Shown: one piece after another, positions 57,601 through 60,600 of the stretch
Numbering within the stretch: position 1 is the first letter of the stretch
How the letters are laid out: every line of letters begins with the position of its first letter
NCBI RefSeq assembly: GCF_054482595.1
Contig: NZ_CM137008.1
DNA length: 64,000 bases
Reading direction: 5' to 3' (one strand)
Made by a program: the position numbers

Positions 57601-60600
57601 GAACGCAAAGTATGAGAGTTTTACAAAAGAGCAGATAAAAGCCAACATTAAATCTAATGTTATAAATTATAATTGTAAATTGCATTTTAATGAAAAACCA
57701 GAAAATGAGATCGTGTGCAGGCATCTTTCTCTACAATATTGTATAGATTCAATGAATGAACATACAGGGAAAGTTCCATTAAAGGCTTACTATTCATCTC
57801 CGGAAGATATACAAAAACATATTCCATTCGAGCTTGAGCAGCAATTTGACAATCTACAAAAAAATCCACCACCCGGTACATGCGTTGTTGCCTGTGATAA
57901 GTTTGGGGAGGCATTATCAGTCTTTTTTCACAGAATGGAAAAAGAGAAGTTAACGCATATGGCGGCAATCGTTCAATCTCAAACACACGCTATGGCCGTC
58001 CGCTTGAGAATCAAAAAAACGCCTGCTGGTGAAACAGAATATGTTGTATCCTTTTATGATCCTAATGCAACCAATACTGCAGTACGCTATAAAGCAAACA
58101 ACTGTGATTCTTTTGGGTCATTGCGATCCTTTATGAATATTAAACAGGCACAAAAAAAATGGGTAATCACAGAAATTTGCTCCGACTGTGTAGGAATAAC
58201 TCCTTATCTCCCTCGAGAACAAGCCCATTTATTAAGTGGTATAAATAATGAGTTGCAACCACCATTATCACCATCAGCATTACATCTATTAATACAAATG
58301 GGGATGCATGAAAACATTGTTCTTTTTTTTGATAAATTTAAAAACTCCCAAGAAATGACAGCATCAAAGGTTCTTGCTGCGAAATCAATTACAGGAACAT
58401 ATGGATTATATGTATTATGGTATCAAAATAGTATTGATACTTTTAATGAATTCATAATAAATTTAAAAGAGTTGACCAGAAAGTATAATTTTAGCCATGG
58501 CGATCTGGAAAATATACTCCTTGCGAAAGATTACCTCGGTGTGAGCTGGATTCCTAAGGCTTTAAGAAATAATCAAAATAAAATTGTCAAAGCATGGTTG
58601 TTGGCGATAGATGACTTTGAGAAAGAATTTGAGGTAAATAAAAATGAAATGCTTCTTAGTATAGTAAATGAAATAGACTCAACTTATGATTTAAATAGCG
58701 CTATTAAAACCAATGATTATGCTGTTGTTAATATATTATTAGCCAATATAAAAGCCAAAATGTTTAAAAATGAAATAAATAAAGAAGATATATTGAAACT
58801 GATGGCAGCAAGAGAAAAAGTGGCGGGAGCATCAGACAAATGGACGAAGGCATCAGGCTTATATTCTGCGATAGTGAAAGGGCATACGGAGATTGTTGCT
58901 GCCTGGATGGAGACAGCTGAAGTGATAGCCAGCCATTATGAAAATGATAAAGATGTAGTGAGAGAACTACTGTCGCTGAGCAGAAATAATGCAGTTTGCT
59001 CTTTGTATGTTGCCAGCTATAAGACAATGAGTAAGCAGGTCATTGATGTATATCTGAATGCGGCGATTCGCCTGGCGTTGCAACACGGGTTCACTTTCGA
59101 TGAAATTGTGGAGCAGTTTACCCGTGACTTTGATGGGAAGTCATTCTCTCATGTGGTAGAGAAAGCGGATGATATATATATGGGACTCTGGCTGAAAATA
59201 CTCAAAATTGTGGTTGGTGAAAATGAAAATTATCTTAAAGATGTGATGATGCAACTGGAAGCGAAGAATAATGAAGGTAAATCTGTAATAAGTCAGGCAA
59301 ATGGCAATCCTGTATTTAAAGAACTATTCTGGAAAGCAATAGACGAATTTAACTTTCCGCAAGAGGAGCTTAATCGGTTAAACCAATATCGTTCTCTGTA
59401 AAGACAGGACTGCAAGATGTTGAAAGTCGCTCCAGCGTAGTAAAGGCAGTTTTGGTGCAGGATGCTCATAAAAAAACAAGCGCTGTTCCGTTCTGATAGT
59501 AGAACGGAACAGTGCCCTTTATATCAATTAAGACGACTTACTTACCAATACAGAAGCTGGAGAAAATCCGCCCCAGCAGGTCGTCAGAGGTAAATTCCCC
59601 GGTGATTTCGCTTAAGTTCTGCTGCGCCAGGCGCAACTCTTCCGCCAGTAGTTCGCCTGCCCAGGCACCTAACAGTTGCGCTTTACCTTGCTGCAAATGC
59701 TCCGCTGCCTGTTCCAGCGCCTGTAGGTGGCGACGGCGCGCCAGGAAGCCGCCTTCCATGTTGGTGTCAAAGCCCATGCTCTGTTTGAGATGGTTACGCA
59801 GCACGTCCACGCCTTCGCCAGTCCTTGCAGACAGACGAATTAACGCGTGACCGTTCACTTCACTTATTCCCAGCGTTTCGCCGGTGATATCGGCTTTATT
59901 GCGCACCACGGTGATCGGCAGTTTCGCTGGCAGACGGGCGATAAATTCCGGCCAGATCTCTGCCGGATCAACGGCGTCTGTCGTGGTGCCATCGACCATA
60001 AACAGCACGCGGTCGGCCTGTTCAATTTCCTGCCACGCGCGCTCGATCCCAATACGTTCAACTTCGTCACTGGCTTCACGTAGCCCGGCGGTATCGATGA
60101 TATGCAGCGGCATTCCGTCAATATGGATATGCTCACGCAGCACGTCACGCGTGGTTCCGGCGATATCGGTTACGATTGCCGCTTCACGGCCCGCCAGCGC
60201 GTTTAACAGGCTCGATTTACCGGCGTTAGGACGTCCGGCAATCACCACCTTCATCCCTTCGCGCAACAAACTACCCTGACGTGCTTCAGCACGCACTGCA
60301 TCGAGATCGGCAATCACGTCATTAAGCTGGGCTTCAATTTTTCCGTCGGAGAGGAAATCGATCTCTTCATCGGGGAAATCAATTGCCGCTTCGACGTAAA
60401 TGCGCAAGTGGGTGAGGGCTTCCACCAGATGGTTGACCCGTGCGGAGAATGCGCCTTGCAGCGAGTTAAGTGCCGAACGGGCTGCCTGTTCCGAACTGGC
60501 ATCGATAAGATCGGCAATCGCCTCGGCCTGGGCTAAGTCGAGTTTATCGTTAAGAAACGCGCGTTCGGAAAACTCACCAGGGCGAGCAATCCGCAGGCCG

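Follow-up and report, generated by a model that had tools for sequence, protein, structure and literature searches.

A perfect hairpin between an ShET2/EspL2-family gene and mnmE of Escherichia coli: a predicted intrinsic terminator in island DNA

In the stretch of 64,000 nucleotides analysed here (the window; contig NZ_CM137008.1 of RefSeq assembly GCF_054482595.1) a gene of the ShET2/EspL2 family and mnmE run towards each other, and the spacer between them carries a perfect inverted repeat. This arrangement raises the question which of the two genes the hairpin serves, and whether it belongs to the E. coli backbone or to the DNA that contains the effector-like gene. The initial annotation regarded the repeat as the likely terminator of mnmE and also considered an insertion boundary and a bidirectional insulator. 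The hairpin is very probably the stem-loop of a Rho-independent terminator in the convergent-gene spacer which acts in the mnmE direction. It appears to be an undescribed but ordinary intrinsic terminator, possibly a bidirectional one; a literature search that combined ShET2, tnaA and mnmE gave no pertinent result on the locus.

The genes and sequence elements of the region are listed in Table 1. The locus of strain XH990, which served as a source of the annotation, is 99.9 % identical to that of the window, and beyond mnmE follow yidC, yidD and rnpA. The reading frame of the effector-like gene also opens at 57221. Its product matches the N-terminal region of the ShET2 enterotoxin (Pfam PF07906, E = 1.6e-49) and is named "ShET2/EspL2 family type III secretion system effector toxin" by RefSeq in matching genomes. 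Orthologues of this protein are 84-91 % identical, and the homologue search returned orthologues from E. coli and Shigella alone and revealed no other genomic contexts. In O157:H7 the gene is a frameshifted pseudogene. The island-specific segment is composed of the effector-like gene, its upstream region and the spacer bearing the hairpin; neither an integrase nor a transposase was found within it in the ORF list or the annotation. The island haplotype also borders directly on the CRP site of the tna promoter and is linked to a distinct allele of that promoter.

Table 1 Genes and sequence elements of the tnaB-mnmE region (window coordinates)
Feature	Position	Strand	Remarks
tnaB	53792-55039	-	
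tnaA	55130-56545	-	backbone, left of the island; annotation taken over from the RefSeq records of K-12 and XH990
tnaC leader peptide gene	56766-56840	-	backbone, left of the island; annotation taken over from the RefSeq records of K-12 and XH990, and sequence
Island-specific segment	56934-59537	.	2604 bp, 30-43 % G+C; absent from K-12
ShET2/EspL2-family type III effector-like gene	57239-59401	+	720 aa from the RefSeq start; convergent with mnmE
Spacer bearing the hairpin	59402-59537		136 bp, between the convergent genes
U-tract, mnmE direction	59470-59479	-	UUGUUUUUUU; abuts the extended stem; sequence and terminator scan
Extended stem	59480-59515	.	terminator scan and folds
Core hairpin	59483-59512	.	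perfect 12-bp arms, 6-nt loop; direct reading and inverted-repeat scans
Weak U-rich tail, + direction	59516-59525	+	CCUUUAUAUC; passes the loose scan threshold
mnmE (tRNA modification GTPase)	59538-60902	-	454 aa; ORF list and RefSeq annotation of XH990 and K-12

Whether the hairpin is backbone or island is answered by the comparison with K-12 MG1655. In a BLAST of the window, homology to the K-12 locus is confined to 55900-56933 and 59538-60220. The right junction (59537|59538) thus falls exactly at the stop codon of mnmE, and the left edge of homology lies at 56933. In place of the island K-12 has 149 unrelated bases, and the hairpin studied here is absent from the K-12 MG1655 locus in this BLAST comparison. 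The K-12 spacer contains another hairpin, GAAGCCGCAT-N12-ATGCGGCTTC, 11 nt past the mnmE stop. It resembles the present one in its place relative to this stop codon and in predicted stability (-23 to -26 kcal/mol) but is unrelated in sequence and lacks a U-tract on either strand, and the 149-bp spacer in which it sits is missing from the island haplotype. Since K-12 possesses a different spacer and a different hairpin, the hairpin of the window is island DNA. The initial annotation had conceded that an identical hairpin downstream of mnmE in K-12 would reduce it to the native terminator; because it is missing there, the native K-12 terminator was rejected as its identity. Judged from the sequences, the presence/absence polymorphism between mnmE and tnaC exchanges the entire spacer and is no clean insertion. 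The island haplotype would have replaced a 149-bp spacer of the K-12 type, which may be the ancestral state, and in island-bearing strains both the 3' UTR of mnmE and its terminator would be supplied by the island.

The core of the element consists of CTGTTCCGTTCT (59483-59494), GATAGT (59495-59500) and AGAACGGAACAG (59501-59512), so that the perfect 12-bp stem and its loop had been reported with exact sequence and coordinates. In the extended stem the RNA of the + strand forms 16 pairs, including G.U, around a 4-nt loop, and that of the - strand spans 15 positions with one A.C mismatch. The G+C content of the stem is 50 %. Random sequences drawn from a first-order Markov model of the window (200 trials) contained on average 0.045 perfect inverted repeats of 12 bp per 64 kb when loops of 3-20 nt were allowed, with at most one per trial. 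The inverted-repeat scan found four of them in the window itself (at 13044, 16768, 50019 and 59483). The hairpin at 59483 is therefore far beyond chance, yet it is one of a class typical for terminator hairpins and not singular. Of the earlier description as unusually perfect, the perfection of the arms holds, whereas the rarity is tempered by the three further repeats and by the 6-nt loop being a minority variant.

Folding predicts a stable RNA stem-loop on both strands. The energy of the hairpin ranges from -21.7 to -27 kcal/mol, depending on the strand and on the length of flank folded. The fold of the - strand reaches -27.1 kcal/mol (z = -4.66 vs shuffles), and the whole spacer on the + strand reaches -44.4 kcal/mol (z = -4.06 vs shuffles), of which the hairpin alone accounts for -27. 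When the same 74-nt context is folded, the + strand gives -27.0 and the - strand -25.1 kcal/mol.

On either side the element closely follows the final gene of a transcription unit. It starts 81 nt past the TAA (59399-59401) of the + strand effector-like gene, close to the 80 nt given before, and it ends 25 nt from the mnmE stop codon (59538-59540, - strand). Positions 59470-59479 read AAAAAAACAA on the + strand, an A-tract with an A7 run at 59470-59476, which agrees with the minus-strand T-run of the initial annotation. An intrinsic terminator stem is expected to have a U-tract of some 7-9 nt right at its 3' side; such a tract is present on the - strand and marginal on the + strand. The terminator scan detects the site on both strands. 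The T-tract weight is 4.12 on the - strand vs 1.12 on the + strand. A discriminant of the d'Aubenton-Carafa type was calculated with current energy parameters, so its values allow a relative comparison only: the - strand with the extended stem obtains d = +16, the sole positive value, the + strand -27, and the two strands of the K-12 spacer hairpin -25 and -35.

In intrinsic termination, a hairpin formed in the RNA exit channel acts together with a weak rU:dA hybrid to release the transcript. In the RNA transcribed from mnmE along the - strand, 12 perfect pairs would form a stable stem, which the outer GC clamp lengthens to 15 positions, and UUGUUUUUUU would follow directly after the stem. The mnmE transcript would then be released some 25-70 nt past the stop codon. 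The proposal that the hairpin terminates mnmE is supported at the sequence level by this tract and by the distance of 25 nt from the stop codon. With the intrinsic terminators of E. coli the element shares a stem of 12-15 pairs, the adjoining UUGUUUUUUU, a location tens of nucleotides past a stop codon, and arms that stay constant while the loop length varies between alleles. It differs from them in the G+C content of its stem, which is only 50 %, and in the unusually large loop of 16-17 nt in most alleles.

The island is present in 765 of 5426 complete E. coli genomes (~14 %) when a carrier is defined by coverage of at least 80 % of the query 56500-59620. The hairpin spacer was found in 740 of the 5426 genomes by megablast and in 769 by blastn. 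In every match it is chromosomal and adjoins mnmE, and it occupies one place per genome; one genome shows two places, probably a split match. Every carrier locus examined had the island, whole or as a remnant. The effector-like gene and the hairpin appear to be co-inherited, with two exceptions seen, each due to an insertion sequence. In strain W46 the hairpin loop is interrupted by an IS5. In strain EFF60 an IS1-associated deletion extends from tnaB to the effector gene and ends 9 nt before the hairpin, and the T-run is shortened to three. Both disruptions imply that an intact element is dispensable, at least in those strains. Transfer of the hairpin together with the gene on plasmids was also considered and found no support, as PLSDB contained no plasmid match. 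A scan for the exact pattern in 100,044 species genomes yielded only three short MAG contigs, each showing the tnaC-effector-mnmE locus. Their bins (Clostridium, Collinsella and Bacillota) are taken to contain mis-binned Escherichia DNA. The contigs were recovered via the arm sequence itself and are thus uninformative on arm conservation. The idea that one of them represents another Escherichia species (91 % identity at the mnmE 3' end) was dropped, as K-12 itself has 91.8 % there.

The strict co-inheritance with the island raises the question whether the hairpin belongs in the first place to the ShET2/EspL2-family mRNA, as a terminator or stabilising stem-loop at its 3' end that arrived together with this gene, its use by mnmE being incidental. 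This is a possibility of some weight, if not a probable one. It is favoured by the stem of the + strand, which is the longer and more stable one in the same context (16 pairs, -27.0 vs -25.1 kcal/mol). However, the + strand tail CCUUUAUAUC is poor, the discriminant there is negative and the run of seven T lies on the mnmE side. In addition, the hairpin is still intact in O157:H7, where the gene is frameshifted, and neither PLSDB nor the scan of the genome collection contained a copy of hairpin and gene in another context.

The variation among alleles bears on the same question. Fourteen spacers, sampled at even steps along the match rankings from best to weakest, were aligned. The arms are constant across them save for one A>G change in the 3' arm of some lineages, which still permits G.U pairing on the + strand and leaves an A.C mismatch on the - strand. 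The closing G.T pair behaves alike (G.U on the + strand, A.C on the mnmE strand), and both count in favour of a 3' end of the effector mRNA. Together they fit selection on the RNA of the + strand better, or no selection at all. By our own count in the 14-sequence alignments, variable columns amount to 1 of 24 arm positions, compared with roughly 8 % elsewhere in the spacer; in these alignments arm conservation is statistically indistinguishable from the rest of the spacer. No compensatory double change occurs among the 14 spacers, the single change being one-sided, and covariation therefore neither supports nor contradicts the structure. The loops of the alleles measure 6, 16 or 17 nt. GATAGT is confined to the window and about 50 genomes (the 95-99 % identity band), and all others carry GATAGTTAGTTT(C/A)CCC(C). 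The 6-nt loop is an 11-nt variant of the 16-17-nt loop, a minority allele, and its minority distribution suggests that it probably arose by deletion. A free loop length with constant arms is as expected for a stem-loop of RNA or of DNA, with the reservation that the lengths differ by about one turn of the helix. Efficient intrinsic terminators typically have smaller loops than the 16-17 nt of the majority alleles.

For a terminator which acts primarily on mnmE, a second action on the effector side can be envisaged. The + strand RNA would form the longer stem since two A.C positions of the - strand become G.U. On the side of the ShET2/EspL2-family gene, where the U-tract CCUUUAUAUC is poor, the element would probably terminate less strongly, act as a pause site or stabilise the 3' end. 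It would then be bidirectional and limit antisense read-through both ways. In a bidirectional terminator, the hairpin between the two genes would have an A-tract before it and a U-tract behind it on each strand; here the A7 run provides the U-tract of the - strand, and the tail of the + strand is weak (T-tract weight 1.12 vs 4.12). An asymmetric bidirectional action is plausible. The bidirectional insulator of the initial annotation keeps its stem (16 pairs and -27 kcal/mol on the + strand) but is weakened by the tail on that side.

In E. coli, hairpin elements located between convergent genes are known from the literature; they act as bidirectional terminators or sites of pausing, define the 3' ends of both transcripts and are described as unlike intrinsic terminators (bioRxiv 10.1101/2022.10.23.513370). 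The bidirectional terminators of Ju et al. 2019, as far as they are presented in that preprint, resemble the present element in that two convergent genes share one hairpin, which is flanked by an A-tract and, opposite to it, by a tail containing T, and in that both RNAs can fold the stem. They differ in that the element here is strongly asymmetric, canonical towards mnmE and with a poor U-tract on the effector side. The model of the preprint, including its requirement for a hairpin, also lends some support to a collision or pause element, which would be no terminator by itself; polymerases arriving from both sides would pause at it, and head-on and trailing collisions would set the 3' ends. 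The convergent genes and the strong hairpin on both strands suit such an element, but the known examples are unlike intrinsic terminators, whereas here a canonical U-tract follows the stem on the - strand. Moreover, transcription of the AT-rich effector gene may be low, and some strains have only a pseudogene, so that convergent traffic may be rare. Altogether this makes a collision element quite improbable.

As a routine intrinsic terminator the hairpin alone would matter little; the instructive point is an evolutionary one. A horizontally acquired haplotype supplies the predicted terminator of a core gene, mnmE, in ~14 % of E. coli genomes. A further-reaching interpretation, which we consider rather unlikely, is that acquisition of the island rewired the 3' end of mnmE in these ~14 % by putting an island-supplied, canonical and perhaps bidirectional terminator in place of the K-12 hairpin with its missing U-tract. 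If this were true, strains with the island would differ measurably from those of the K-12 type in 3'-end formation and mRNA stability of mnmE, and the 11-nt loop variant of the window would further tighten the terminator. Read-through towards tnaC would differ as well, and the island-linked allele of the tna promoter would add to this difference. For O157:H7 and other island-bearing strains, the K-12 annotation would be the wrong sequence from which to judge mnmE 3' ends and the upstream regulation of tna.

A palindrome may also act as DNA instead of RNA, for example as the end of the island, as a site of attachment or recombination, as a REP/MITE-like element or as the operator of a dimeric DNA-binding protein. 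A perfect palindrome 25 bp from the island junction invites such a reading, and two different insertion sequences have landed in or beside it in other strains. In addition, the loop-length difference of 10-11 bp corresponds to about one helical turn, which would leave the arms on the same face of the DNA. A shift of arm spacing by 10-11 bp between alleles is, however, tolerated by few operators. The junction itself is the mnmE stop codon, away from the hairpin; no partner exists at the left junction, and the island lacks flanking repeats, direct or inverted, as well as an integrase or transposase. An island end, attachment site or terminal repeat was discarded on these grounds (junction 25 bp off, no partner, no flanking repeats). 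The hairpin as a mark of the insertion boundary, proposed at the outset, thus proved imprecise, with nothing similar at the left junction. Arm-like sequences number 6 in the window vs 3.9 expected, which is chance level, and across the 5426 genomes searched the element has one place per carrier genome; repeated palindromes of the REP, BIME or MITE-like kind were rejected because nearly all matches, in the searches for near and for distant copies alike, had a single place per genome. Taken together, a function at the DNA level is very improbable. A scan of 56400-59800 with Rfam assigned no family to the hairpin; its only signal in this interval was a sub-threshold RAGATH-35 at 57212-57269, elsewhere than the hairpin.

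The sequence immediately beside both junctions of the island (the segment absent from K-12 between tnaC and mnmE, 56934-59537) shows elevated divergence from K-12. In the left flank 10 mismatches fall within the first 100 nt from the junction (56834-56933), and in the right flank the 200 nt of mnmE nearest the junction (59538-59737) contain 15. Farther from both junctions most bins contain 0-3 mismatches to K-12 per 100 nt, with a single bin reaching 6. This excess beside both junctions points to two old haplotypes and to breakpoints of recombination within the flanks of the island. 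The left junction (56933/56934) is located 2 nt upstream of a palindrome at the tna promoter, presumably a CRP-type site by its likeness to the TGTGA-N6-TCACA consensus. The palindrome is unchanged in the alignment of three island-bearing sequences with K-12. The spacer and the -10 element of the same promoter are represented by one allele common to all three island-bearing sequences and unlike that of K-12.

Features at the tna-mnmE locus and further inverted repeats in the window
Feature	Sequence or strain	Position	Remark
tna promoter palindrome, CRP-like	TGTGAATCGAATCACA	window 56916-56931	within 56834-56933
K-12 hairpin 3' of mnmE	GAAGCCGCAT-N12-ATGCGGCTTC	L001 (K-12 mnmE-tnaC locus) 1130-1183	
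IS5 in hairpin loop	E. coli W46	L004 (W46 locus) 270-1510	CCAG duplication on its flanks
IS1 bordering deletion	E. coli EFF60	L015 (EFF60 locus) 2788-3575	
Perfect 12-bp inverted repeat		window 13044-13082	loop 15 nt
Perfect 12-bp inverted repeat		window 16768-16795	loop 4 nt
Perfect 12-bp inverted repeat	AAAAACCCGCCA...TGGCGGGTTTTT	window 50019-50053	loop 11 nt

The ShET2/EspL2-family gene of the island (57239-59401), which may be the counterpart of espL4 of virulence databases, is 84-91% identical at the amino-acid level among the listed cluster representatives from E. coli strains, and 89-96% identical at the nucleotide level between E. coli strains. Judged from these sequences, the divergence between strains is unusually high within E. 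coli. Furthermore, the annotation of two genomes labelled O157:H7 and of one other treats the gene as a frameshifted pseudogene. The beginning of this effector-like gene is overlapped by a match to the Rfam family RAGATH-35 on the minus strand (57212-57269), which stays below threshold (24.6 bits, gathering score 38.9, E = 0.1) and is most likely due to chance.

For the K-12 hairpin downstream of mnmE, a U-tract was sought on both strands and none was found; as an intrinsic terminator this hairpin obtains a negative score. The sequence gives no clear indication of how transcription of mnmE stops in strains of the K-12 type. In addition to the hairpin at 59483-59512, an inverted-repeat scan of the window revealed three further perfect 12-bp inverted repeats, and the one at 50019 looks like another bidirectional terminator.

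The equivalent of 59470-59512, comprising A-run and hairpin, has been struck by two different insertion sequences, IS5 in W46 and IS1 in EFF60. In EFF60 the deletion bordered by IS1 has taken out tnaA, tnaC, the effector gene and part of tnaB; it ends within the A-run, 9 nt short of the hairpin.
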